Shown piece after piece: positions 32,943 to 64,000 of a DNA stretch of 64,000 nucleotides. This DNA comes from an uncultured Alphaproteobacteria bacterium. GTDB taxonomy: Bacteria > Pseudomonadota > Alphaproteobacteria > Rs-D84. Position 1 is the first letter of the stretch, and each line of letters starts with the position of its first letter. A program made the position numbers and the translations under genes. The stretch spans positions 31,765 through 95,764 of the forward strand of contig CAJOGC010000001.1 of the NCBI GenBank assembly GCA_905234185.1, read 5' to 3'. Below the pieces are notes generated by a model. The model ran no database searches. It saw nothing but the letters and a program-made list of their open reading frames with translations, and was not told where the DNA came from.

Positions 32943-33942
32943 AATCTAATATTCGTCGACGATATCGACGCGCATGCATTCCCGGCGCTAAATCCAGTAC
33001 GCCAACGGTTTGTAATTTTTTGAATGCATCGGCAATGTCGCGCCGAGTTGCGACATCTGTTGTCCGCATTGCATCACGATATACGCGACTTAATATCGAC
33101 CATAAAAATCGTTTATACCAAATTCGCGCATCACGCCGATTCGCCTTTTTGCGATATTCATCGGCCATCTTACCAAAACCAGCAATGGTTCCAACCGCCG
33201 TTTGTCCCGCCCCGGCATGCAATGCCGATGTTGCATTGACAGTGTAATAATACAATGGCAACCGCGTAATAACACCACTTAGTCGGCGCATCAATACCAT
33301 TGACCAAAAAAGTGTATCTTCGAACACGCGCATTTTTGTATCAAAGCGCAAGTCGTTTATTGCGCGCCGTCTGTACATGCGCATCCATATCATTCCATTT
33401 TGCACATACCATGACCGTGGTCCAAAATCACTGTTCGTTGATCGTGTAATAAGGTTTTTTACATATTTATATTTTATCTTATCTGTATCATATTTATTTT
33501 TAAATGATTCGGGCATTTTGTCCGGTGGAAAATTGACCGCATCCGGCGCATTATGTGCCACACGATCATATTCAAACGCAACCACATCAACATCTTCTCG
33601 CCGTGCAATCTTGTAAAGAATTTCCATTGTTTGCGGATGAATACAGTCGTCCGCGTCCAGAAACATGATATATTCCCCATCGGCCATATCCAACGCTGTA
33701 TTGCGCGCCGCTGAAACACCGGCATTTTTCTTGTGCACAACGATAAAACGGTCATCATGTGCCGCATATTTATCCGCAATTTTGCCGGAATCGTCAGGTG
33801 AACCATCATCAACCAAAATCGCAGACCAATCATAAAAAGTCTGATTCAACACCGAATCCAGGCATCGTGGTAAATATTTTTCGACATTATATATTGGAAT
33901 AATTATGGTTATTTTATGTGACATTGTTTTACCCTGTTGCAA
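32923..33942 (-). CDS. family 2 glycosyltransferase
   Basis: Start probably at MSHKITIIIPIYN…. Classic GT2 N-terminus (IIIPIYNVEKYL…VDDGSPD…FLDADD). Paralog of 36804..37826. Confidence 0.75.
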   Translation of the reverse strand: MQQGKTMSHKITIIIPIYNVEKYLPRCLDSVLNQTFYDWSAILVDDGSPDDSGKIADKYAAHDDRFIVVHKKNAGVSAARNTALDMADGEYIMFLDADDCIHPQTMEILYKIARREDVDVVAFEYDRVAHNAPDAVNFPPDKMPESFKNKYDTDKIKYKYVKNLITRSTNSDFGPRSWYVQNGMIWMRMYRRRAINDLRFDTKMRVFEDTLFWSMVLMRRLSGVITRLPLYYYTVNATSALHAGAGQTAVGTIAGFGKMADEYRKKANRRDARIWYKRFLWSILSRVYRDAMRTTDVATRRDIADAFKKLQTVGVLDLAPGMHARRYRRRILDFIRQNS

Positions 33943-34836
33943 AATCGTCTCAAAACGTGTAAATTATATTATGAAAAAGGAATAAAATCCATGACAAAAC
34001 GTTTGTTTCTTTTCGCGGGCTATGATGCAAATGGCATTATTGACGATGCATTAATTTACTATGTGCGCGCATTATCACGACATGGCGATGTAATATTATG
34101 CATGGACAATGACTGTAAAAAATCAGAACTTGATAAAATAAAGCCATTTGTCTTGCATCCAATTGCGATTCGTCATGGCGAATATGATTTTGGTTCTTAT
34201 AAACGGGCCTATGTTTGGGCACGCGATAAAAAAATATTAACACATTATGATAATATTTACCTTGTGAATGATTCTGTATTTGGCCCATTATATGATGTGG
34301 CAACCACAATAAGAAAAATGGAATCCACAAAAACAGACGCCACCGGTTTGGTTATCGCCACCCATAAAACACATGAATATATGGAATCTTGGTTTGTCCG
34401 GTTAAACAAGCGAATATTTATGTCCAAATGGTTTGACGCATTTATGTCATCGGTTCAACACGAAGAATATAAATATATTATAACGGTAAAATATGAACAT
34501 GGGTTGACGAACATTATCAGAAACAATGGTTGTTCTTTTGCGGCCGTTTATACTGTACGGGGACGCTATACATACAATCATCCCAAACGATTATTCCAAC
34601 GCGGCTGTCCATTTATAAAACGCGCATGTTTTACCCGACATAATGGTGCCGCCGGTGCACAAATAAGATATGTATTGTGTCATGGTGCAAAAGGTGCATG
34701 CAACGCTATAATTAATACTGCGAACCGGGTTTATGGTGTTGGGTATATGAACTGGCTATTAACCAGCAACCCCATAAAGATTATGATTCGCAACATTAAA
34801 TATGCACATAAAAAACTAAAAAGTGGCGAAATATGA
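33937..34836 (+). CDS. polysaccharide biosynthesis protein (RgpF / rhamnosyltransferase-like), tentative
   Basis: 299 aa. Likely start at MTKRLFLFAGYD…. It resembles the rhamnan-synthesis RgpF family only loosely. Confidence 0.3.
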   Translation: MQNRLKTCKLYYEKGIKSMTKRLFLFAGYDANGIIDDALIYYVRALSRHGDVILCMDNDCKKSELDKIKPFVLHPIAIRHGEYDFGSYKRAYVWARDKKILTHYDNIYLVNDSVFGPLYDVATTIRKMESTKTDATGLVIATHKTHEYMESWFVRLNKRIFMSKWFDAFMSSVQHEEYKYIITVKYEHGLTNIIRNNGCSFAAVYTVRGRYTYNHPKRLFQRGCPFIKRACFTRHNGAAGAQIRYVLCHGAKGACNAIINTANRVYGVGYMNWLLTSNPIKIMIRNIKYAHKKLKSGEI

Positions 34837-35669
34837 AAAAATCGAAAAAAATTGCGGCAATTACAATGGCACGCGACGATGAATTTTTCTTGTCACGCTG
34901 GATTGCGTACTATGGCAAACAACTGGGGACGGAAAACCTGTATATTTTATTGGATGGCACCGACCAGAAAAAACCCGCAAACGCCGGAAACGCGCACATA
35001 AAGAAACTTGCACACACGGCTATGTCGCGCGCCGCGGGTGATAAATATCGTATTGGTAAATTGACCGATTTAGCGCATGAGTTATTGAAAAATTATGATA
35101 TTGTGATTGGCTGTGATTCTGATGAATTCCTGGTTGTTGACCCAAACACAAAAAAGACATTGGCGGAATATCTATCTGAATCAAACATAAAAACAACCGT
35201 ATCTGGGCTGGGCCTGGACATTGGCCAACACATGAAACTGGAAAAACCGTTGGATTGTGATATGGCATTATTAGAACAACGCGAATATGCCCTGATTTCC
35301 ACACGATACACAAAACCCGTTGTCATAAACAAACCTGTCCGTTGGGGCAGCGGATTTCACAGTATAAAAAGTCATAATTTTCACATAGACCCAAATTTAT
35401 ATCTTTTGCATTTTGGCGCGGTTGACATGAACATGCTGATAAAAAAAGCGGAAAAACGCGGGGCCGATTGGGTAAACCATCTGCACCGTCGTGGCAATGG
35501 CACCATTAACGCCGTCACATCAAAAAAACCGCAACCCGAACAATTCATGCACATAGCGCGAATTATGCAACAAATTTTTCGCCCTATATATGCTTTTGAT
35601 AAACCTGGCATGTTGGGATTAAAACGCGTTGTAAAAATACCAGAAAGATTTAAGATTTACGATTTATAA
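34833..35669 (+). CDS. GT-A fold glycosyltransferase (GT92/GT2-like)
   Basis: 278 aa with …ITMARDDEFFLSRWIAYYGKQLGTENLYILLDGTDQ… and CDSDEF DxD-like motifs. Related to 32004..32942. Confidence 0.4.
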   Translation: MKKSKKIAAITMARDDEFFLSRWIAYYGKQLGTENLYILLDGTDQKKPANAGNAHIKKLAHTAMSRAAGDKYRIGKLTDLAHELLKNYDIVIGCDSDEFLVVDPNTKKTLAEYLSESNIKTTVSGLGLDIGQHMKLEKPLDCDMALLEQREYALISTRYTKPVVINKPVRWGSGFHSIKSHNFHIDPNLYLLHFGAVDMNMLIKKAEKRGADWVNHLHRRGNGTINAVTSKKPQPEQFMHIARIMQQIFRPIYAFDKPGMLGLKRVVKIPERFKIYDL

Positions 35670-36804
35670 TTTCTGATTTTATCTGGGTCGCAATTTCATT
35701 CGCATCAAAACGTTTCAGATTTTTTGTTGCAACATTTATCATTTTTTTGACATCGACCGTATTATTGTAAACGGCATCCATGTGTTGTGCCAATCTGCCC
35801 GCATCACCAACATTAAACAACAGTCCCGCCCGTCCGTCCATTAAAACCTCTCGCGGACCAAAGGCACAATCAGATGCTATGTTCAATGTTCCAACGGCCA
35901 TTGATTCTATTAACACGATGGCAAACCCCTCACCAACACTGGACAATATATTCGCACGCGCCCCACGCATAAATCCGAACGGATTTTCAACAGTACCCAT
36001 AAATATAATATGTTCTTTTGCGGACACGCCACGCGCAAACGATTCCAATTGTGGCCGCGAATAACCATCACCAACGATTACCAAATTAATATCCGGTTTA
36101 TTGTTTTTTTGCCAGAATGCATCAAATGCGCGAATCACGGTTTCAATATCCTTACCATTAACCAGTCGCGAAACACATACAAAATAATCCCCATCATACC
36201 CGGTTTCATTGGCGGCTATATTGCGAATTTCGATTAAATCCAACGGATTATAAATTCGTATAATTTTATCGACATATTGTGGATATTCGTGGCGCAATTC
36301 ATCGGCAAAAGCATCCGTCAAAACAACAAAACGGTCATATTCAGATAAATAACGCACATATCCACCATGGTGAAATTTTGCTGTCGAAGAATGCCACCAC
36401 GCTATTTTCGGTATATTCAATTTAGCAATTTCACGCACACAATCAAAATCATAATAATCAACAACAACATCTATGTCACGGAACATGCGTTTGTTGAATA
36501 ACAATCGCCACATCCAACGATAACTATCGCGCACTATGTGCTTTGATACACGCCACACAAAGAAATGTGGTAAATCAGTTCCCAGATATTTGCATGGATA
36601 CAATGTCCGCACAGAAATATTTTTATGCACATCGAACCACCGCCGCCATCTGTCACGAATTGGTGTATATGTAATCACAATTATATTCAAATCCGAAAAT
36701 GACGACAACTTATCCAGTGTCCGCACAAGAACACTTTCGACCCCCCCGACCTTCATGTCACGCAAACAAAATGCAACATTAATTTTGCGTTTTTTATTCA
36801 CCAT
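35650..36804 (-). CDS. GT4 (group 1) glycosyltransferase
   Basis: 384 aa with the C-terminal EX7E-type motif region (…SVGEGFAIVLIESMAVGTLNIASD…). Confidence 0.7.
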   Translation of the reverse strand: MVNKKRKINVAFCLRDMKVGGVESVLVRTLDKLSSFSDLNIIVITYTPIRDRWRRWFDVHKNISVRTLYPCKYLGTDLPHFFVWRVSKHIVRDSYRWMWRLLFNKRMFRDIDVVVDYYDFDCVREIAKLNIPKIAWWHSSTAKFHHGGYVRYLSEYDRFVVLTDAFADELRHEYPQYVDKIIRIYNPLDLIEIRNIAANETGYDGDYFVCVSRLVNGKDIETVIRAFDAFWQKNNKPDINLVIVGDGYSRPQLESFARGVSAKEHIIFMGTVENPFGFMRGARANILSSVGEGFAIVLIESMAVGTLNIASDCAFGPREVLMDGRAGLLFNVGDAGRLAQHMDAVYNNTVDVKKMINVATKNLKRFDANEIATQIKSEIINRKS

Positions 36805-37826
36805 TACTTAATATCCCCGCGCGCAAATCGTATAAGGTTATATTTCATATCACACCATTCACATGTCGGACATTCCAACGCCCCCGACAAAACTAAATCC
36901 CGCATACATTGACGCGCAGATTCACGATCCGCCGGTGTTTCCATATATCGCACCTTGCGGAAAGCCCAATGCACAAAATACCACATAAAATTATCCGCCC
37001 ACATTTTCAATTGATAAGGTGTGGCATGTTCACGATATGCCGCATAAGAAGTTTCGATGCCGATACACAAACTCTGCATAATTCGCAACTGTTTTGCAGC
37101 CAACACAATGCCATTAAAATTCGGTATATAGAAATACAACGGCAAAGGCATAATCGTGACCCTTGGGTTTTTCAACATAACAACGGACCACCATGGAAAA
37201 TCTTCGAACAAAATACCCTTAATAAACGGTATATCGGCAATTAATTCACGACGATACATATTCTTCCAAACCTGGCAATGCTTAATAAGCCATTTGCGTC
37301 TGGGATGGAACATATTATGTGTCCGTTCTGTTGCATACTGATACACATCGTTTGTGACCAATGTCTTTATTTTATTAGGTTTATATTTTTTGTAAAGACG
37401 ACGCGGCACAACATTATCCGTCCGCATATGCAAAAAATGCCGCACGATAAGTTGTGGTCGATAATGCCGATCATATGTAAAAGAAACAATATCAGAGTTA
37501 TCCCGTTGGGCCATATAGTAAGCCAATTCCATCGTTTGCGGATGGATAAAATCATCACTGTCCAGATACATGATATATTCGCCACGCGCATGCGGGAATC
37601 CGGCGTTTCGTGCATCTGACAAACCACCGTTTTTCTTGTTCACAATTTTGAACCGTTTATCCCGCGCGGCATATTCTGCTAATATTTTATCAGAATTATC
37701 GGGGCTGCCATCGTTTACACAAATTGCCTCCCAATCAGAAAAAGTCTGATTCAGAACGCTGTCCAAACACCGCCGCAGATATTTTTCAACATTATACACC
37801 GGTATTATTATAGATATTGCTGGCAT
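36804..37826 (-). CDS. family 2 glycosyltransferase (paralog)
   Basis: MPAISIIIPVYNVEKYLRRCLDSVLNQTF…VNDGSPDNS…LDSDD. Its N-terminal ~100 aa are near-identical in pattern to 32923..33942. Confidence 0.75.
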   Translation of the reverse strand: MPAISIIIPVYNVEKYLRRCLDSVLNQTFSDWEAICVNDGSPDNSDKILAEYAARDKRFKIVNKKNGGLSDARNAGFPHARGEYIMYLDSDDFIHPQTMELAYYMAQRDNSDIVSFTYDRHYRPQLIVRHFLHMRTDNVVPRRLYKKYKPNKIKTLVTNDVYQYATERTHNMFHPRRKWLIKHCQVWKNMYRRELIADIPFIKGILFEDFPWWSVVMLKNPRVTIMPLPLYFYIPNFNGIVLAAKQLRIMQSLCIGIETSYAAYREHATPYQLKMWADNFMWYFVHWAFRKVRYMETPADRESARQCMRDLVLSGALECPTCEWCDMKYNLIRFARGDIK

Positions 37827-37842
37827 AGGCGCCCCCGTGGTT

Positions 37843-38757
37843 TTATTTATACATCTTGTTTATCATGACATCCGCGAATGATCCGGGTATCGGATGTTCC
37901 GTTCCACGATAAGTTGTTTTCTGGAAAAATGATTCTGATGTTAATTTATCAAATATCTTTTTATCAAATGGTTTATCCTGATACGCCCACCATAACGCGT
38001 GTGTGGGATCTTGATCAACGTGCGGCATTTTTTTGAAATGTTTTTTCGCGCGCGAATCATTTTCAACCAATGTTCTGAATAATAATTGGTGCATAAAATA
38101 ATCAAAAGTATGATTTTCGTGCATCCAATAATCCAAAATCATAGCACGCCACGCCGCTAACAAATAAGCCCCCCGTCGTGCGCGGATAAAACAATTCTGC
38201 ATAAACGAATATGGACTGCCCCCGATGTTATAATTATGCCCCGCCAAATATACAAAGAAGTCTTCGTCACTTATCCACTTTGGAATCGGCGATGTCACAA
38301 ACCCCGTTGCGTCAAGCCAATATCCGCCATAGCGATATAATAATTCTACACGACAAATATCCGCAAAATGTGCATTACCTATTTTCCCGTCACGATATTT
38401 ATTCACAATTTCGACCGGCAAATCGATATAGTCAAAAATCGTATCTGCATCCAAAATAACCAATTCCTGTTTACAGTGTTTTCTGACACTCTTGAAACAT
38501 GCCTTTACTAACTTTGGTGCCTTTGCTTCGCCTTGCAACCAGATTGTCCAAATTTTGTCGTTTTTATCATTGTTCACAACGGGTTCTTCAACAACCGTGG
38601 CCGCCGCGGGTAAATAGCGCCTAAAATATTTCGTTGCTATCTTGGCGGTATAATCTGTTCGAACACGGCGACGAGCGGCGCGTTCACGCCACGGCCAGTT
38701 TAATATATGACCATGAATAACAATTTTGGTCAACGCCCACATACGTGCTATTTTCAT
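37843..38757 (-). CDS. GT32/Och1-like (capsule-synthesis 'Caps_synth' DXD) glycosyltransferase
   Basis: 304 aa with …WTIWLQGEAKAPKLVKAC…ADICRVELLYRYGGYWLDATGF…, resembling the Gly_transf_sug family. Confidence 0.45.
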   Translation of the reverse strand: MKIARMWALTKIVIHGHILNWPWRERAARRRVRTDYTAKIATKYFRRYLPAAATVVEEPVVNNDKNDKIWTIWLQGEAKAPKLVKACFKSVRKHCKQELVILDADTIFDYIDLPVEIVNKYRDGKIGNAHFADICRVELLYRYGGYWLDATGFVTSPIPKWISDEDFFVYLAGHNYNIGGSPYSFMQNCFIRARRGAYLLAAWRAMILDYWMHENHTFDYFMHQLLFRTLVENDSRAKKHFKKMPHVDQDPTHALWWAYQDKPFDKKIFDKLTSESFFQKTTYRGTEHPIPGSFADVMINKMYK

Positions 38758-57461: not shown

Positions 57462-57490
57462 TTGTAAATTTTGTCTTTTTCTGATATAAT
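57462..57490 (+). promoter_or_regulatory. sigma70-like promoter upstream of the Mtd-N-like gene
   Basis: TTGTAA at 57462-57467, a 17-bp spacer and TATAAT at 57485-57490. It is followed by a leader hairpin gggacggtttagtcccg + tttttt at 57505-57527. Confidence 0.45.
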
Positions 57491-57563
57491 ATCGATCGCA
57501 CATGGGGACGGTTTAGTCCCGTTTTTTATTTCCAAATTTCAACAAAAACCAAAGGAAAACAAA

Positions 57564-58049
57564 ATGTCACGACAAATACAAATTCGGCGCGGCAGCGCGG
57601 CCGAACATAGCACGTTTACCGGTGCAATCGGTGAAATCACAATGGATACAACCAATAAAACACTGCGTGTACATGACGGTGAAACCGCGGGCGGAACTCC
57701 ACTTGCGCGTGCCGATGAATTAACAGACTTGGAATCCAGCATTACACAAAATGTAATGAAAAAGATTTTACCGGACTGGTCCGCCGTTGTTGATCAAAAC
57801 ATCAACACCGACTATACCGCGGCAAAGAATGGATACCTGTTGGTATATTATGACGATTACGACGCATCATCAACAATAACAATAAATGGATCAACATATA
57901 CAATAAATGCAATAGCCACTGCCCCGGCCGGCGCCAGCAGCGGTTCCATATGCATTCCTGTTGCGGCCGGTGACACATACAGATATTCACCGGCGCGTGC
58001 CATGGGAACAATTGCAACCTATATCAAATTTATTCCGTGCCAGGAATAG
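57564..58049 (+). CDS. small protein with an Mtd / phage tail-fibre N-terminal-like domain
   Basis: The start is taken at MSRQIQIRRGSAAEHSTFTGAIGEITMDTTNKTLRVHDGETAGGTPLARADEL…, with a Shine-Dalgarno aaagga 8 nt upstream. This closely parallels the N-terminal segment recalled for Bordetella phage BPP-1 Mtd (…FRGGTTAQH.TFTGA..EITVDTDK.T…VHDG.TAGG.PLA). That comparison is from memory. Total length about 162 aa. Confidence 0.5.
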   Translation: MSRQIQIRRGSAAEHSTFTGAIGEITMDTTNKTLRVHDGETAGGTPLARADELTDLESSITQNVMKKILPDWSAVVDQNINTDYTAAKNGYLLVYYDDYDASSTITINGSTYTINAIATAPAGASSGSICIPVAAGDTYRYSPARAMGTIATYIKFIPCQE

Positions 58050-58790
58050 TTATTTATTCATATAACTTGTGCGAATGCGATGCCGCATATCGTGAAACGG
58101 TATCAGTTTTATAAGAAACATTATAATTTTATGTCGCAGTGTTGTCCGCAACCGAAACTGGGCGAACAGTGGTGTAATAACCGCTGTGTCGCCTTCGGTT
58201 GTGGGACGCCCCAAATCATCAAAAGTTTTGGCGTGCACATTATATTTAACAATATTTGGTGCTAAATCCGTGCGAACAACGGACCGCTGATTTTCCATAT
58301 GTTCAATAATCATAAAATCTATGGTTTTTCCGAATTTTGCCGAAACCCGATTACACAGGTCAACAATCACATCGTTTGGTGTATTGTGCACCTGGGAAAA
58401 CCAGATTAATAAAATGCGAGATTTTTTATGCATATTATTTATAAAACGCGCAATACGGCGATTATACTTTTCGGTCACATCCGGCATTGATTCCAACAAA
58501 TTTTTCCCCGCCGGAAAATCATGATAATAATAAAAACCGTTCCGAATATTTTCATAATAATCGCATTTGTCATCGTTAAGGACATTTGGATCCTTGGGTA
58601 AAAACTTTATATCATCAATATTCAAGAAGTCAGCAAAATCAGTCAAAATAAGATTCATTCGTGTTTCAAACGACGCATTGGTCAGCCAATCGAACGGCCC
58701 CGATGTAATTCGCATTTTACATTTGTTCATATACATCGCGGTCGCACAATCACGCCCAATAGAATAAATAATATCATATGATTTATGCAT
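58050..58790 (-). CDS. DUF1796-like (putative papain-like) protein commonly found in glycan loci
   Basis: 246 aa with …IYSIGRDCATA… and …SGPFDW… motifs remembered from the DUF1796 family. Tentative. Confidence 0.35.
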   Translation of the reverse strand: MHKSYDIIYSIGRDCATAMYMNKCKMRITSGPFDWLTNASFETRMNLILTDFADFLNIDDIKFLPKDPNVLNDDKCDYYENIRNGFYYYHDFPAGKNLLESMPDVTEKYNRRIARFINNMHKKSRILLIWFSQVHNTPNDVIVDLCNRVSAKFGKTIDFMIIEHMENQRSVVRTDLAPNIVKYNVHAKTFDDLGRPTTEGDTAVITPLFAQFRLRTTLRHKIIMFLIKLIPFHDMRHRIRTSYMNK

Positions 58791-58804: not shown

Positions 58805-59683
58805 TTAGTCTGGTGCAAAGAAAGCGATACCACTGTCCAATGTATCTATTTCCCTATGATTCATATACCAATCATACGATTTAGCAATATGCCCCACATC
58901 CAACGCACGACGGCCGTTCAAGAATAAATCATAACACAAAATTTTAGCGGTTGGACCACATATCACCACAAAAATTTTATTTTTAGCGCATTTCATGCAA
59001 TCATTGAAAATTTCATCATATTTTGCAAACGCGTCTGATGATGGCGCATAAACATATTCCACAGAATTTGCATTGTCAAAAATATTATGCGTAATTTTAT
59101 CAAACACGGTTTTTCCACAAACGATGACAATGTCTTTTTTGTTCCAAATTTTTCTGAATCCGGAAAAATAAGCCTTTTTATCGATTCCACGATTTGCAAA
59201 TCCCAATGTCATTTCCGCGGCGTAATAAGTATTTTTATCAAAATTTATATATTGTTCCAATATATTACGATACTTATTTCCATTATTCCGCCAAAAATCG
59301 CGCGCATATGGTTGTAAACAAGATTTATCTTTGTATAACACAGATGGTATTCCAACCATCAAATTTTTATCACATGCCGACAAAACCTGCTTTAACCGCG
59401 TTGCAATCAATGGTGATGCGGACTGAAAAGGAATACTGTCACCGCACATTAAACTTATTTCTCCATCACCAAAGCGCACCATGCTGGCCTTGGATTTAAT
59501 CAAGAAATCCAAACTTTCCATAATTCCACAAACCGTATGCGAATCACCATTTTTAACCGCATCGGATATTTCGTAAAATAAATTGTCATACACCTGGGCT
59601 AAATCGATTGGTTCATGGGTATGTGAACGCAGGTCAATATGTGACAACAGTTTTATGTTTCTGAACAATTTTCGTAATGACAT
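58805..59683 (-). CDS. GT-D type glycosyltransferase (DUF1792-like)
   Basis: 292 aa with the …SMVRFGDGEISLM… motif, the hallmark of GT-D/DUF1792. Confidence 0.5.
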   Translation of the reverse strand: MSLRKLFRNIKLLSHIDLRSHTHEPIDLAQVYDNLFYEISDAVKNGDSHTVCGIMESLDFLIKSKASMVRFGDGEISLMCGDSIPFQSASPLIATRLKQVLSACDKNLMVGIPSVLYKDKSCLQPYARDFWRNNGNKYRNILEQYINFDKNTYYAAEMTLGFANRGIDKKAYFSGFRKIWNKKDIVIVCGKTVFDKITHNIFDNANSVEYVYAPSSDAFAKYDEIFNDCMKCAKNKIFVVICGPTAKILCYDLFLNGRRALDVGHIAKSYDWYMNHREIDTLDSGIAFFAPD

Positions 59684-59684
59684 T

Positions 59685-60095
59685 TCACTGTTCCTTTTTA
59701 TTATTTATTTCGACCAATTCAACCAACATCATATTTTTCAACATTAAAAAACATACGCGCCGAAAATAAACCGCATCTACGATTGGTTTTACAACAATCG
59801 CGCCATTTGTGACAAATTCACGCACAGATTGTTCAATATCGTCTGTTTCATATGCAAAATGATAAAATTTGGTCCCTTTATCTAAATATGCCGTTAATGG
59901 TCCGTCATCAGAAATATTTTCCAGCAATTCCAATTGTGGTTGCCCATCTGATGAAATAAACAACCCACGAATTTTTTGTTCGTTATCAATAAACACATCG
60001 GATACCGGTTTGTACCCAAGGATTTCAAAATATTTCAATTCACGTTCTATATTGCGACATGCCACACCGATATGATGAAATTTGGTTTTTGCCAT
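59685..60095 (-). CDS. VOC (glyoxalase / methylmalonyl-CoA epimerase-like) family protein
   Basis: 136 aa with …FHHIGVACRNIERELKYF…GYK… and paired beta-alpha-beta-beta-beta modules. Confidence 0.55.
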   Translation of the reverse strand: MAKTKFHHIGVACRNIERELKYFEILGYKPVSDVFIDNEQKIRGLFISSDGQPQLELLENISDDGPLTAYLDKGTKFYHFAYETDDIEQSVREFVTNGAIVVKPIVDAVYFRRVCFLMLKNMMLVELVEINNKKEQ

Positions 60096-61657
60096 TACAT
60101 AACCTCTATCTTTAATCCGGTTAAATCGATATTTTCCGGTATTTCATATGCAACACACCCAGATGCATCCAATTCTGTTCCAGCCAATTCGGCTAACCAC
60201 TGCATCGCCGGTCCATTGCGTTCGCCGTGTTTGTAATTTATTTCTATGACATTATCCGTGCCCAGTTGTTTGGCCGCGACCGCAAACAAATATGGCAACA
60301 TAACATTTTCTAATTTGCGACCCAACGCACGACAAGACACCGTCATTTCGTCCAAGACCAGGTATGCACCGGATTTGTGTGTTGCCAAGATAGCAATCAC
60401 ACCACTGTCTGATAAATTGTCGGACATTCTAATTGTGACGATTGCCCGACCTGGGGTTGTCATAAATTCATTAACCACCGTTTCGTTATACCGTGCATAG
60501 GTCAAAATAAATTGATTCGTTTTTCCAAAAAGTTCCGCAACACGCGTCATTTGTGACAAATCGTTCACATGATATTCTAAACAAATTCCCAATTTTGCGA
60601 AATATTCAGCCGGCGTCAGACTCTGTGCCAGTTTTGCGCGTTCAATATTTGCGCGTATATCATCGGCACGCAATTTATCCTCACTTGAATGTTTCAGTTT
60701 TAATAATCCCGGATAGTATTTCATAACCGAACAAATATTATCAGTTGCCAATATGGTGTGAACATTTGTTGTTGCGACATTTTCTATTTCGGCGGGATTA
60801 TCATCGATAAACAAGATTGCATCCGTACCAATGTTTAATGTTTTTGCAATTTCAATAATGTTTTCATCTTTTGGTTTCCAATTTACCCGAGCCACCGTAA
60901 AATCGTCCCAACGCAAGATAAAATCGGTGCGTTTTTGGAACATGTTTATAACATCAACTTCCTCATTTTTTGATGCAATGCACAGAAAGAATCCATTGTC
61001 TTTCAGGCCTTTCAACTGTTGTTGAAATTCGTTGTTTGGAATAATTTTATCAACACCATCTTCGCCCAAAACACCGCTGTATAATGTGTTGTCTAAATCA
61101 ACTACAACCGCCTTTAATGCCGGCGCGACCATGGCGGGGAAATACCGCATACCCAACACGCGCGCAATTTCCAAACACGATTTATTTGATAATCGGGTTC
61201 CTGAAAAAGACTCTTTGGCAACATCGTATGCGGCGTCACCGAATATGCCGATGACATCGGTAATACGCAACGCAAAACAATCGGTCGTTAAATTATCTAA
61301 ATTCAATGCGGCATCACCGGTATATGCAACCAAAATTGGCGCCGTTGTCTGTGACCGTAAAACATTAACCCGTTCGGATAAGAAACCAACCAAATCATTT
61401 GATTTATAACGATTTGTATCCAACCAAATTAACTGAATATTGGCATCGTGAAAATCAAAATTCAGGCTGTCATCATAATCACTGTATACAAAATCAGCAA
61501 TATAACCAGATTCGTGTAAAAACGCATTTATAACACTGGCAACCATTTCAAACGAGTGGTTTCGATACACGGCGACACGCAGTTTTGTGCCACCAATCGG
61601 TGCGTTTAATAAATCAAGTCGTTTAAGGTTGTCGGTGTATAAATTGGTGTTTAGCAT
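60095..61657 (-). CDS. FkbH-like HAD-superfamily (IIIC) domain protein
   Basis: 520 aa with the HAD motif I VVDLDNTLYSG and …CIASKNEEVDV… typical of FkbH. The start overlaps the ACP stop. Confidence 0.6.
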   Translation of the reverse strand: MLNTNLYTDNLKRLDLLNAPIGGTKLRVAVYRNHSFEMVASVINAFLHESGYIADFVYSDYDDSLNFDFHDANIQLIWLDTNRYKSNDLVGFLSERVNVLRSQTTAPILVAYTGDAALNLDNLTTDCFALRITDVIGIFGDAAYDVAKESFSGTRLSNKSCLEIARVLGMRYFPAMVAPALKAVVVDLDNTLYSGVLGEDGVDKIIPNNEFQQQLKGLKDNGFFLCIASKNEEVDVINMFQKRTDFILRWDDFTVARVNWKPKDENIIEIAKTLNIGTDAILFIDDNPAEIENVATTNVHTILATDNICSVMKYYPGLLKLKHSSEDKLRADDIRANIERAKLAQSLTPAEYFAKLGICLEYHVNDLSQMTRVAELFGKTNQFILTYARYNETVVNEFMTTPGRAIVTIRMSDNLSDSGVIAILATHKSGAYLVLDEMTVSCRALGRKLENVMLPYLFAVAAKQLGTDNVIEINYKHGERNGPAMQWLAELAGTELDASGCVAYEIPENIDLTGLKIEVM

Positions 61658-61875
61658 TTTAATTCCTTGACCTTTTTAACAATCGCGTCCATCGATTTCA
61701 GTTGTGGAATATCGGCGGGATTAAATGAAATATCAAATTCTTCTTCGACTGTCATGATAATTTCAATTGACTTTAATGAATCCCAATTTTCAACGGTTGT
61801 GCTGGATACATTATCGCCAACCTTGATGTCTTTTTTCAGAATCTTGGATAATATTTGTGCTATTTTTTCTTCCAT
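61651..61875 (-). CDS. acyl carrier protein (stand-alone)
   Basis: 74 aa with the …VENWDSLKSIEIIMTVEEEF… DSL phosphopantetheine-attachment motif. Confidence 0.6.
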   Translation of the reverse strand: MEEKIAQILSKILKKDIKVGDNVSSTTVENWDSLKSIEIIMTVEEEFDISFNPADIPQLKSMDAIVKKVKELKC

Positions 61876-61877
61876 TA

Positions 61878-62633
61878 CTATTCTCCTTGGTCAAACTTTC
61901 TTAGAACATATTCTTGGGACGCAATCGTATAACCGAAAAACAAATCAAGATTAACAATAGGTTGATTGTTTGATGAAATGCTGGTGATAAGTTTATTCAT
62001 CCCATGTTGCTGATAATATTTCAATGCCAAATCAAACATCATAAATCCGAACCCTGTATTTTGATATTGTTCGAAGATACCTTCCAATAAATCATCAACA
62101 ATATGTGTTTCTGGATCCATTTTAACAAGTCCAAATCCCACAGGTGAATCTTTGAATGTATAAAGAAAAAGGTGGGCATTCGGATCATTAACTAAATCCA
62201 TAATCCAGTTTCTGTACCGGCGACACGATGTATCGCGAACCAATTTTGGATCAAGATATATTCTGTCGGTGTGAAACATGTCGTCAGACATTAAATCGGT
62301 GACACTGTGCCACGCTTGTTCGGTTTTTTCGATATACTGTTGAACCAATGCATTACGCATTTTCGCCAATGTTGCCGGGGGTTCATAATCAACCAACGAT
62401 TTTTCCATATGAAATTGGGTTTCCATAAATCTGAACCCAATGTTTTCCAACGCATGCACAATTTCAAGATTTCCAGTGGGAAGCTTTATCGTCACATATT
62501 TTCCCGTAAATTCATCGGAATTTATACGATCAACAATGGAACGAATGTCCGACAAGTCGTCCACAGACACACGCATTTCCACGGCGTCAACCCCGATATT
62601 TCTTTTTTCCCAAAACGCATCAATTATTTGCAT
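61878..62633 (-). CDS. GNAT-fold acyltransferase-like protein
   Basis: 251 aa with …YQNTGFGFMMF… (Q/R-x-x-G-x-G motif A-like). Confidence 0.35.
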   Translation of the reverse strand: MQIIDAFWEKRNIGVDAVEMRVSVDDLSDIRSIVDRINSDEFTGKYVTIKLPTGNLEIVHALENIGFRFMETQFHMEKSLVDYEPPATLAKMRNALVQQYIEKTEQAWHSVTDLMSDDMFHTDRIYLDPKLVRDTSCRRYRNWIMDLVNDPNAHLFLYTFKDSPVGFGLVKMDPETHIVDDLLEGIFEQYQNTGFGFMMFDLALKYYQQHGMNKLITSISSNNQPIVNLDLFFGYTIASQEYVLRKFDQGE

Positions 62634-63918
62634 TTGTTAAATCCTTTATTATTTGCATATATCTATCACGCACTATATCGCGTTCATATGTTGCCAGCCA
62701 GTATTTATATTCGTCATCTATTATTTTGCGTCGTGCCGCCGGATGTTTTAACAAATATTCAACACCACGTTTCATGTCCGCAACATTATCGAACATGTAC
62801 GGATAATCGGTTGGCATATATTCGTGAAAAGAAAATATAGGTTTTTCACGATTTATTTTCACCACAGACGCCACCCGCATACGCATTAAATCGATTTGTG
62901 TCATTGCCGAAGATACTGGAAAACTGTCCACAAAAACATCGGCACATTGAAACAATAAATCATACGCGGCGGTCATCGGCACAATATGTAAACGCGCACG
63001 CAAATCATCATGTCCAACAAAAATACTATTTAGTATAGCGCATTCTTTATCGTTCATATCTGAGATAACCAAATGATGTAATTTTTTGTTATCGCGCAAC
63101 AATTCCAAAATCATATTGAAATACGGCGATGTATCACCGTCAAACATTTTATATGACGAACCGCCCGTCACGGTTAATGGTGCATCGACCGGTATCCCAA
63201 GTTCAGATTTTTTTGCATCTATTTCAGATTTGGAATAATAATGTGTATCGTCACGCCCCACAGATTGCAGACCAATAATTTGACAGTTATGTAAATGACG
63301 TTTTTCTTCGGTAATTTTTTTAATTGTTGGCATGCCTTCTAGTATCACATCTGCCAATGTCATGCCGGCATTTGGAAAATGACTTGCATGATTGAAAAAC
63401 ACTATTTTCATTCCGGTGTTGCGTTTTAATAGATGCATAACCGCCGTAAACAGCAAATCCCACATATGAATATACACAAATGATACGGACGGACAATCAT
63501 CAGCGATTTGGTTGTACAAATATATTAAATCATTTACAAAATTTTTATGCGATAAATTTATTCCAGAAATTGTCGCACAATCCTTAATCTTTGCCAACAT
63601 TGTCGGCGCACAGCGAGTCGTTTCGTCCAACATGGAACAAAATATATGCATATCTGCACGATCCGACATAGATTCGATCTGGTTCACCAAACAGAGTGTA
63701 TGTCCACCAACATCATACAATGCCGTTGCAAAAAAGCCGACACCATTTTTATTAGAATGCGGAATATGAAATTCAGATTTATGTTTAGAATATATCGCAT
63801 CGGCTAAATCACAAATACGGGTATCAATATCAGATACATCGAATTCACGCGCATCATATTTCATGTTAAATGCGCGACGGATTTTTTTATATCTTATTTG
63901 GCTTAACCAGTCGAACAT
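62620..63918 (-). CDS. hypothetical protein in a polysaccharide-modification cluster (possible GT-B-like)
   Basis: 432 aa if it starts at MFDWLSQ (63918), overlapping the upstream stop as TAATG. The ORF is open to 63942. Confidence 0.4.
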   Translation of the reverse strand: MFDWLSQIRYKKIRRAFNMKYDAREFDVSDIDTRICDLADAIYSKHKSEFHIPHSNKNGVGFFATALYDVGGHTLCLVNQIESMSDRADMHIFCSMLDETTRCAPTMLAKIKDCATISGINLSHKNFVNDLIYLYNQIADDCPSVSFVYIHMWDLLFTAVMHLLKRNTGMKIVFFNHASHFPNAGMTLADVILEGMPTIKKITEEKRHLHNCQIIGLQSVGRDDTHYYSKSEIDAKKSELGIPVDAPLTVTGGSSYKMFDGDTSPYFNMILELLRDNKKLHHLVISDMNDKECAILNSIFVGHDDLRARLHIVPMTAAYDLLFQCADVFVDSFPVSSAMTQIDLMRMRVASVVKINREKPIFSFHEYMPTDYPYMFDNVADMKRGVEYLLKHPAARRKIIDDEYKYWLATYERDIVRDRYMQIIKDLTNANN

Positions 63919-64000
63919 TATAACCCCTTGATAAATTCGCATGCGGTGTTTATTACGCGTTCTTGGTCATAATCGGTCAAATCAAAATACAACGGCAATC
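63918..64000 (-). CDS. C-terminal fragment of a further gene of the cluster (runs off the window end)
   Basis: Minus-strand frame …LPLYFDLTDYDQERVINTACEFIKGL, stop at 63918-63920. Confidence 0.3.
   Translation of the reverse strand, partial: LPLYFDLTDYDQERVINTACEFIKGL

Follow-up and report, generated by a model that had tools for sequence, protein, structure and literature searches.

We analysed a stretch of 64,000 nucleotides (nt) from an uncultured alphaproteobacterium of the lineage Rs-D84 (hereafter the window), and in particular a gene located at 57564–58049 on its forward strand that encodes a protein of 161 amino acids (aa). We give an even chance to the reading that this gene encodes the dispersed receptor-binding tip of a domesticated podovirus particle resembling a gene transfer agent (GTA), that it is controlled by antitermination, and that it is co-inherited with a glycan locus which probably makes its receptor. 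We infer docking onto the particle, antitermination, glycan specificity and GTA behaviour; in relatives, the glycan linkage and a shared leader point to an undescribed GTA-like system. The key feature, beyond what an earlier note on this DNA had described, is the systematic convergent linkage of a variable head to a variable glycan locus.

The fibre-tip protein and its family

The open reading frame (ORF) call, profile matches and an alignment of homologues support a coding sequence with an ATG start and a TAG stop at this position. The earlier note, made from the sequence alone, had proposed that the N-terminus resembles that of Mtd (major tropism determinant), a protein that sits at the fibre ends of Bordetella phage BPP-1. 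Indeed, residues 5–41 (57576–57686) form a genuine Mtd_N domain (Pfam PF18454), which the profile search matched over its whole length (profile positions 1–37 of 37, E 1e-15; score 57.8 bits, cut-off 26.3). In PHROGs the protein matched phrog_9648, a 'tail protein' (E 1e-12). A tblastn comparison with BPP-1 mtd gave 61% identity across residues 1–51, and at residue 51 the sequence similarity ends. The AlphaFold model, which was built with 40 homologues in the alignment, reached a predicted local distance difference test (pLDDT) of 86.5 and consists of a small beta N-domain, a helix at residues 50–68 and a beta-sandwich head. The predicted helix (57711–57767) would form a neck, possibly as a trimeric coiled coil, and the head has six to seven predicted strands between residues 76 and 159 (57789–58040, pLDDT 73–98). 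We presume that the Mtd_N domain functions in docking and trimerisation, and that the head binds a receptor or glycan.

Foldseek agreed with the assignment of the N-terminal domain. Its best matches in the PDB were Mtd structures (1yu1, E 5e-5; 1yu3 and 1yu0, E up to 3e-4); superposition of the whole chain on Mtd was poor (template modelling score (TM) 0.27, root-mean-square deviation (rmsd) 15 Å). The head gave weak matches (E ~0.01) to C1q/TNF-like trimeric heads and carbohydrate-binding modules. In BFVD the best matches were other small proteins with Mtd_N, the tips of phage tail fibres and a phage protein labelled 'C1q-like' (E 2e-6 and weaker).

A protein search with the window protein retrieved 580 matches, nearly all of which are between 145 and 180 aa long. 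In the alignment of 40 homologues, the N-terminal ~48 aa are near-invariant and the remaining ~100 aa are hypervariable. The Mtd_N domain contains 18 columns that are invariant across these homologues, its proportion of non-synonymous differences (pN) is 0.09–0.13 and its ratio of non-synonymous to synonymous substitution rates (dN/dS) is 0.10–0.14. By our reading, made with no signal-peptide predictor, the conserved first ~48 residues carry no secretion signal. As judged from the predicted three-part fold, the window gene encodes a complete small receptor-binding protein. It had been described as a possible fragment, which is contradicted by this well-predicted fold and by homologues of the same length. 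That it is part of a larger, frameshifted ORF is excluded as well, since the homologues are equally long and the stop codon is immediately followed by that of a convergent gene. The 192-aa TTG-initiated ORF that the ORF finder placed from 57471 is an upstream extension of the fibre-tip ORF, and its TTG start is an artefact of mechanical ORF calling, because all 40 homologues begin at MSRQIQ. The identical 161-aa protein is present on 8 independent metagenome contigs.

Among GTDB species representatives we found 211 relatives, and the best 80 almost all belong to Candidatus Enterousia or to gut metagenome-assembled genomes (MAGs) named 'uncultured Alphaproteobacteria/Rickettsiales'. Enterousia belongs to the order Rs-D84, the genomes of which are mostly smaller than 1 Mb (PMC12306168), and contigs of 850–935 kb with family members are therefore near-whole chromosomes. 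The family is specific to Ca. Enterousia and related Rs-D84 bacteria. Each of 10 sampled assemblies holds two to three Mtd_N loci on different contigs or at different positions. Concerted evolution of the N-domains within a genome was not seen (72% nt identity within genomes and 70% between genomes). Paralogous N-domains are thus no more alike within a genome than between genomes, which argues that they are conserved for protein function. At one locus (L007, 6326–7512) two Mtd_N genes with different heads stand in tandem, and at another (L063) a second Mtd_N gene with a different head lies ~5 kb away on the opposite strand. Two contigs titled 'Bacteroides fragilis' and 'Muribaculaceae' (L074, CAVGNU010000004.1, and L053, CAZJGX010000011.1, respectively) carry typical family loci and are most likely mis-binned Enterousia contigs.

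The particle cluster and the shared leader

In 25 species-level loci, a member of the family ends a conserved T7/BPP-1-like head-tail cluster. The gene order of this cluster was taken from an extended view of L174, L176 and L177, annotated with Pfam and PHROGs. It starts with an endolysin-like cell-wall hydrolase, a small ORF, a T7-type scaffold, an HC2/histone-H1-like basic protein and a 276-aa major capsid protein. These are followed by p76, tail tube A (173 aa), the nozzle or tube B (569 aa), p115, a 184-aa fibre stub and the ATPase part of the large terminase. The final part consists of p226, a 335-aa helix-turn-helix (HTH) regulator and DnaB on the opposite strand, and then the nuclease part of the large terminase, the portal (407 aa), Bbp19 and p86. 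At the terminus, some species have a UPF0102 gene on the opposite strand, after which comes the Mtd_N gene, facing a convergent glycan cluster. The Mtd_N gene directly follows portal, Bbp19 and p86 on the same strand in at least 9 of the 25 species. The fibre stub is the N-terminal tail-binding domain of the T7 fibre alone (phrog_1640, E 3e-13) and has no distal domain. The basic protein encoded between scaffold and capsid at L174:7723–8058 is 111 aa long and rich in lysine and alanine (Pfam HC2, E 7e-15), and may condense DNA.

The cluster genes are well conserved. The nozzle family gave 933 matches, and the 120 listed are 565–575 aa long and at least 60% identical. The structural genes have a dN/dS of 0.08–0.2 at saturating dS and of 0–0.12 between close strains, and DnaB one of 0.03–0.06. 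The portal is conserved like DnaB (85% versus 86% aa identity). DnaB and two HTH regulators, of either host or phage origin, are embedded in the cluster. The 10 kb flanking the cluster on each side contained no integrase or phage polymerase, and two species have the same FKBP gene upstream of it. Two ORFs encode the large terminase, one the ATPase (~160–214 aa) and the other the nuclease (~270–280 aa), at L174:12596–17411 and also at L006, L094, L176 and L177. Different species have this split in common, and purifying selection acts on both halves (dN/dS 0.08 and 0.16–0.2). The cluster looks like a maintained, vertically inherited, podovirus-derived particle. The Mtd_N loci are scattered over several sites, a layout with which the element would be unable to transfer itself. 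The source genome of the window presumably also carries the particle cluster; the window and the cluster-bearing loci have no housekeeping genes in common. One such locus, L094 (IMGVR_UViG_3300029904_000363), is a 'viral' contig of IMG/VR that is a piece of an Enterousia chromosome with the cluster and DnaB.

About half of the family genes are preceded by the same arrangement of a promoter, one or more leader terminators, the ribosome-binding site AAAGGA and the ATG start codon. From 47 promoters, 3 of which head the head-tail cluster, we derived the consensus TTGATTTTTT-N4-atTTTaTGaTATAAT, which has a fixed 17-nt spacer and an invariant TG. Among 50 family promoters, 43 are followed by leader terminators, with one in 27 cases and two in 16. 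In total, 100 promoter-plus-terminator units were found in 1.43 Mb of loci, of which 46 lie upstream of Mtd_N genes. The -35 form TTGATTTTT occurs in 29 of 45 Mtd_N promoters versus 3 of 23 promoters of other genes. In 3 species, the head-tail cluster itself starts with TTGACT-17-TGnTATTAT followed by two terminators, the hairpin sequences of which differ while the structure is kept, and further terminators are located inside the cluster. This promoter class appears to be specific to Mtd_N and particle genes.

In the window, the promoter is a diverged version of the consensus. It is a specialised sigma-70-type promoter at 57462–57490 on the forward strand (TTGTAA-17-TG-extended TATAAT, with a T-rich spacer) and has 10 of 12 consensus matches in addition to the TG of the extended -10. 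The earlier note had recognised this near-consensus promoter correctly; the start that it gave to the gene, 57462, is the -35 hexamer of the promoter, and the gene itself starts at 57564. Transcription is predicted to start near 57497, giving a leader of 67 nt. The terminator-like leader hairpin that had been noticed is also present and, as described above, its architecture is conserved in relatives. It lies at 57505–57531 (GGGAC-GGTTTA-GTCCC, with the stem-loop at 57505–57520) and consists of 5 base pairs and a 6-nt loop followed by GTTTTTTATT, ~8–35 nt past the predicted transcription start. The ribosome-binding site AAAGGAAAA (57551–57559) is located 4 nt ahead of the ATG. No Rfam family was found in the leader, and the whole window contains no Rfam family and no transfer RNA.

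Back-to-back with the fibre promoter we observed a strong divergent promoter on the reverse strand (57454–57425, TTGACA-18-TATACT, 11 of 12 matches). It serves a zinc-ribbon/PNPOx-like gene, and the -35 hexamers of the two promoters are ~8 nt apart. On the leader of L174, suhB and mmgR were considered as Rfam candidates and rejected, as the match was sub-threshold (29 versus 41 bits) and not reproduced in three other loci. A non-coding element of ~200 nt is near-identical in L174:4374–4570 (reverse strand), L176:4371–4576 and L177:4378–4586, just upstream of the p81/p151 regulator genes. It has a promoter (TTGACA-17-TACATT), a terminal hairpin with a T-run and CU-rich, anti-Shine-Dalgarno-like stretches. 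It gave no Rfam match (E <= 0.1) and is not a transfer-messenger RNA according to ARAGORN; it may be a regulatory small RNA.

Linkage of the head to glycan genes

Downstream, the window gene meets a convergent gene encoding a DUF1796 protein (Pfam; 58050–58790, reverse strand), and the two stop codons abut with a gap of 0 nt (58049/58050). As the fibre and DUF1796 stops (58047–58052) have neither a spacer nor a terminator between them, the transcripts must overlap or collide. At least in L174, a bidirectional terminator is located between the Mtd_N gene and its convergent neighbour. The rest of the glycan cluster in the window (58805–63942, reverse strand) encodes a GT-D glycosyltransferase (GT), a glyoxalase-like protein, an FkbH-like HAD protein, an acyl carrier protein (ACP; 61651–61875), a GNAT protein and a protein of 432–440 aa. 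Past the window, on the contig L001, the cluster continues with a DegT aminotransferase, a WbsX-type glycosyltransferase and a GT2. The gene had been placed directly upstream of an FkbH/ACP cluster. It does adjoin this cluster, but it is not transcriptionally upstream, as the two converge tail-to-tail. A second glycosyltransferase group in the window (33600–37850; GT2, GT4 and RgpF-like by similarity to proteins of other loci) has no Mtd_N gene beside it.

For a census of this linkage, ORFs were called uniformly in 84 loci containing 86 Mtd_N genes. A convergent downstream neighbour was present in 74 of the 86 cases, at a median gap of ~24 nt (typically 20–30 nt). The first two downstream genes, which together gave 139 proteins, were assigned with Pfam mainly to GT2 (29), GT1/GT4 (~11), polysaccharide pyruvyl transferase (10), DUF1796 (8), TupA-like ATP-grasp (7), hexapeptide transferases (7), GT8 (6) and deacetylases (5), along with several nucleotide-sugar enzymes. 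The upstream genes, which served as a control set, were mixed housekeeping genes with UPF0102 in 11 and a few phage genes, and were not dominated by glycan genes. The glycan gene sets next to Mtd_N genes vary between loci.

A comparison with a sister species (L016) indicates how this variation arises. The window and L016 are ~82% identical at the nucleotide level over 9.6 kb upstream, and their homology continues across the leader into the gene itself. It is lost at nt +154 and comes back ~8.9 kb further on, inside a GT2 gene (L001 position 19007). Between these breakpoints, the L016 head is unrelated to that of the window and is accompanied by other glycan genes (GT8, the UDP-galactopyranose mutase Glf, DegT and GT4). 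Hence, from this comparison, the replaceable cassette consists of the head-coding part and the glycan cluster, and extends from 57718 to the end of the window (64000) and past it, ~8.9 kb from its start. The same is seen in other loci. We compared the 47 pairs of loci with 500 nt or more of upstream DNA in common; in 43 of them homology was lost 90–300 nt into the gene, mostly at 120–270 nt, which is at or just past the N-domain. Between the close strains L174 and L006, the flanking genes have a dS of ~0.05 and the Mtd_N gene has a dN of 0.43 and a dS of ~1.0, which shows that its allele was replaced.

Head and glycan genes are also matched between loci at different sites. The whole window gene and the genes for DUF1796, GT-D, the 432-aa protein and the aminotransferase are homologous to a cassette in L006 (62–73% aa identity) that is located at a different chromosomal site. 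The head differs from that of L006 by a pN of 0.20 and the linked glycan genes by a pN of 0.19–0.21. Where two loci occupy different sites and their heads are 55% identical or more, 13 of 20 pairs have downstream families in common, compared to a baseline of 5% for unrelated heads, and in same-site pairs with unrelated heads this was the case in just 10%. With a lax criterion for head similarity, the enrichment of common downstream genes was 1.4-fold, the effect being visible by identity bin. In these comparisons, the part of the gene that encodes the head forms a single cassette with the convergent glycan cluster, and the two are passed on and swapped together.

A proposed GTA-like particle, its alternatives and known systems

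We propose that the Mtd_N domain docks the tip onto a phage-like particle, probably as a trimer, and that the jelly-roll head beyond the helical neck would recognise a surface glycan. In related species one family member is encoded at the end of the head-tail cluster, and further ones, like the window copy, are scattered over the chromosome; as a whole this resembles a multi-locus, GTA-like domesticated podovirus. The strong promoter would fire into one or two leader terminators, so that the default product in the window would be an RNA of ~32 nt, and a putative processive antiterminator would permit read-through into the fibre gene. All parts would be induced together, because the structural cluster is headed by the same leader design. 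In the simplest reading, the glycan cluster makes the glycan that is bound by the head, and therefore the particles would target cells of the same glycan type. Among the options that the earlier note had left open (receptor-binding protein, adhesin or GTA-fibre fragment), the family member at the cluster terminus in 25 species thus favours a domesticated or GTA-type fibre. A wider version, which we put forward tentatively and doubt in its full form, is that a podovirus-derived GTA exists throughout Rs-D84, with dispersed fibre heads welded to receptor-glycan loci and co-exchanged with them ('greenbeard' delivery of DNA to kin) under a Q-like antiterminator switch.

The proposed particle has features in common with several known systems. 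It resembles BPP-1 in the homologous N-terminal domain of Mtd and in the related chromosomal cluster, which has a BPP-1-type Bbp19 and a T7-type portal. However, BPP-1 Mtd has 381 aa, compared to 161 aa for the window protein, which has no C-type lectin variable domain and no diversity-generating retroelement (DGR) in the window. Diversity in the Enterousia family comes from whole head alleles that are swapped with the glycan locus, unlike the DGR of BPP-1 Mtd, and the family genes are chromosomal and dispersed, whereas mtd lies in a phage genome. Podoviruses of the SP6, K1-5 and KP32 type use an adapter plus exchangeable receptor-binding proteins with a conserved N-terminal docking module. 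Likewise, the 184-aa stub with its T7 gp17 N-terminal tail-binding domain would anchor separate receptor-binding proteins. Such an adapter-plus-tip arrangement fits, because the fibre stub has no distal domain and the Mtd_N proteins have no tail-binding domain. In the Enterousia element, though, Mtd_N takes the place of the docking module, the receptor-binding genes lie at scattered chromosomal sites and the stub would presumably interact with the Mtd_N proteins.

The layout resembles that of RcGTA of Rhodobacter capsulatus, in which the receptor-binding genes (rcc00171 and the head-spike genes ghsA and ghsB) also lie far from the head-tail cluster in a multi-locus arrangement, the fibre gene rcc00171 being located apart from the main cluster and beside exopolysaccharide genes (PMC5026251). 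These proteins, including the rcc00171 product, bind the species' own capsule (PMC10218006), as the Enterousia heads may bind a glycan. RcGTA differs in being siphovirus/HK97-like, in a fibre that carries DUF2793 instead of Mtd_N and in its activation via GafA. Moreover, it has a single fibre locus, whereas Enterousia has several paralogues with a different glycan cluster beside each, and exchange of a head-plus-glycan cassette has not been described for it. With regard to regulation, BaGTA of Bartonella is under BrrG, a Q21-like antitermination factor (10.1101/2024.11.20.624540), and CcGTA of Caulobacter is under GafZ antitermination, the binding element of this factor being located between -35 and -10 (PMC11150451). 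As in these two GTAs and the lambda late genes under Q, terminators stand behind a promoter, both in the leader and within the operon. Dispersed loci are coordinated in those systems by a processive antiterminator that is loaded at the promoter, whereas Enterousia shows the cis architecture alone, with no homologue of Q, BrrG or GafZ identified. Finally, FpGTA of Faecalibacterium prausnitzii is a putative podovirus-like, GTA-like gut element at more than one locus that is accompanied by packaging data and is the first such element reported (PMC12946183). It belongs to a different phylum and its genes are apparently unrelated; the Enterousia element is known from its genes. The papers on Enterousia or Rs-D84 in the searchable literature mention no phage-like element or GTA. 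Since this literature is silent and FpGTA is the first such element, the system appears to be undescribed, while the domain family itself is known.

An explanation that we consider unlikely, but that fits the head-glycan linkage equally well, is that the glycan cluster shields the producer from its own fibre head, as in serotype conversion or tailocin immunity, and that the head targets non-self glycans, either to kill competitors or to avoid re-adsorption to kin. In P22- and epsilon15-type phages the tailspike gene adjoins O-antigen conversion genes, and tailocin producers resist their own particle via their O-antigen type; both are parallels to such self-exclusion. However, the clusters beside Mtd_N genes are large and complete biosynthetic sets with nucleotide-sugar synthesis and many glycosyltransferases, and not small modification modules. 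The particle also encodes a terminase, a portal and a capsid, which argues that it was built to carry DNA and is not a headless tailocin. In addition, the precedent among GTAs is binding of the species' own capsule (PMC10218006).

It is quite improbable, in our view, that the protein was exapted as a free-standing lectin or glycan-associated protein of the cell, for instance one that binds or arranges the cell's own surface polysaccharide or serves as an adhesin, and acts independently of any particle. Its consistent position at the end of glycan clusters, a head resembling C1q/TNF and carbohydrate-binding folds and the lack of particle genes in the window would agree with such a role. On the other hand, we read no signal peptide or membrane anchor in the sequence, no predictor having been run, and conservation falls exactly on the phage docking domain. 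In at least 9 species a family member shares an operon with portal, Bbp19 and p86, the specialised promoter-terminator leader also heads the structural cluster, and the structural neighbours are phage fibre tips.

Still less probable is that a decayed prophage tail fibre left the gene behind as a non-functional relic, kept by chance. In its favour, the gene has no other phage genes near it in the window, and the terminase is split in the related cluster. Yet the reading frame is unbroken and is found at 100% identity on 8 independent contigs, its more than 580 intact homologues are of uniform size, and the N-domain has a dN/dS of ~0.1. Promoter, leader and ribosome-binding site are conserved as well, and purifying selection acts on the structural genes to a degree comparable with DnaB, in genomes mostly below 1 Mb, where junk is rarely kept.

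That the fibre gene is a DGR target like Mtd, to which it is homologous in its N-terminal domain, has almost no probability left. With tblastn, Brt, Avd and Bbp9 had no match either in the window or in related loci totalling ~1.5 Mb, and the window contains no copy of the gene that resembles a template repeat; the head is a predicted beta-sandwich with weak C1q/TNF-like matches and not a C-type lectin bearing a variable region; similarity to Mtd stops at residue 51, with the poor whole-chain superposition given above; and variation arises through allele replacement and not through adenine-directed point mutation. The DGR hypothesis is thus effectively ruled out for the window, and the protein is no counterpart of Mtd in this sense. 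The statement in the earlier note that the window contains no other phage gene, DGR reverse transcriptase or template repeat was borne out by tblastn and the repeat search.

Several observations weigh against the dispersed tip of a GTA-like particle as we propose it. All main-cluster particle proteins were used in tblastn searches and none had a match in the 64-kb window. DNA packaging is not assured, because the large terminase is split by a 3.3-kb insert that consists of the three opposite-strand genes for p226, the 335-aa HTH regulator and DnaB. The leader hairpin of the window is short and, taken alone, statistically unremarkable (fold z-score of the leader -0.79). The antiterminator candidates p81 (HTH), p151 (weak Trans_reg_C), p226 and HTH335 gave uninformative results with Pfam, PHROGs and the PDB and no Q-type match. 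Heads that are 40–55% identical predict the downstream content weakly (9% versus 5%), and physical linkage alone would give co-inheritance of head and glycan genes without functional specificity. Lastly, a 4.3-kb contig (L003, 3735–4291) encodes the identical protein and is 99.5% identical to the window until 142 nt past the fibre stop. Beyond this point it is unmatched among the loci compared and has a 141-aa ORF without a Pfam match, which makes it either a strain variant or an assembly chimera. L005 was rejected as a further strain variant, as it is identical to the window up to its contig end.

If the proposed GTA-like particle is correct, Rs-D84, a group of uncultured gut bacteria, would harbour a second, independent alphaproteobacterial GTA lineage of podovirus type rather than HK97/siphovirus type. 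The maintenance of ~14 kb of particle genes and several fibre genes in genomes smaller than 1 Mb would imply a strong benefit. Short leader RNAs and co-induced read-through would then be predicted. The shared promoter-terminator leader is a simple signature for finding the loci of this regulon in MAGs, and recognising the chromosomal cluster that is catalogued as viral in IMG/VR (L094) would reduce mis-annotation. Finally, the coupling of head and glycan locus would be a genetic mechanism that matches particle specificity to a fast-diversifying surface, an issue for GTAs, tailocins and phage-host coevolution.

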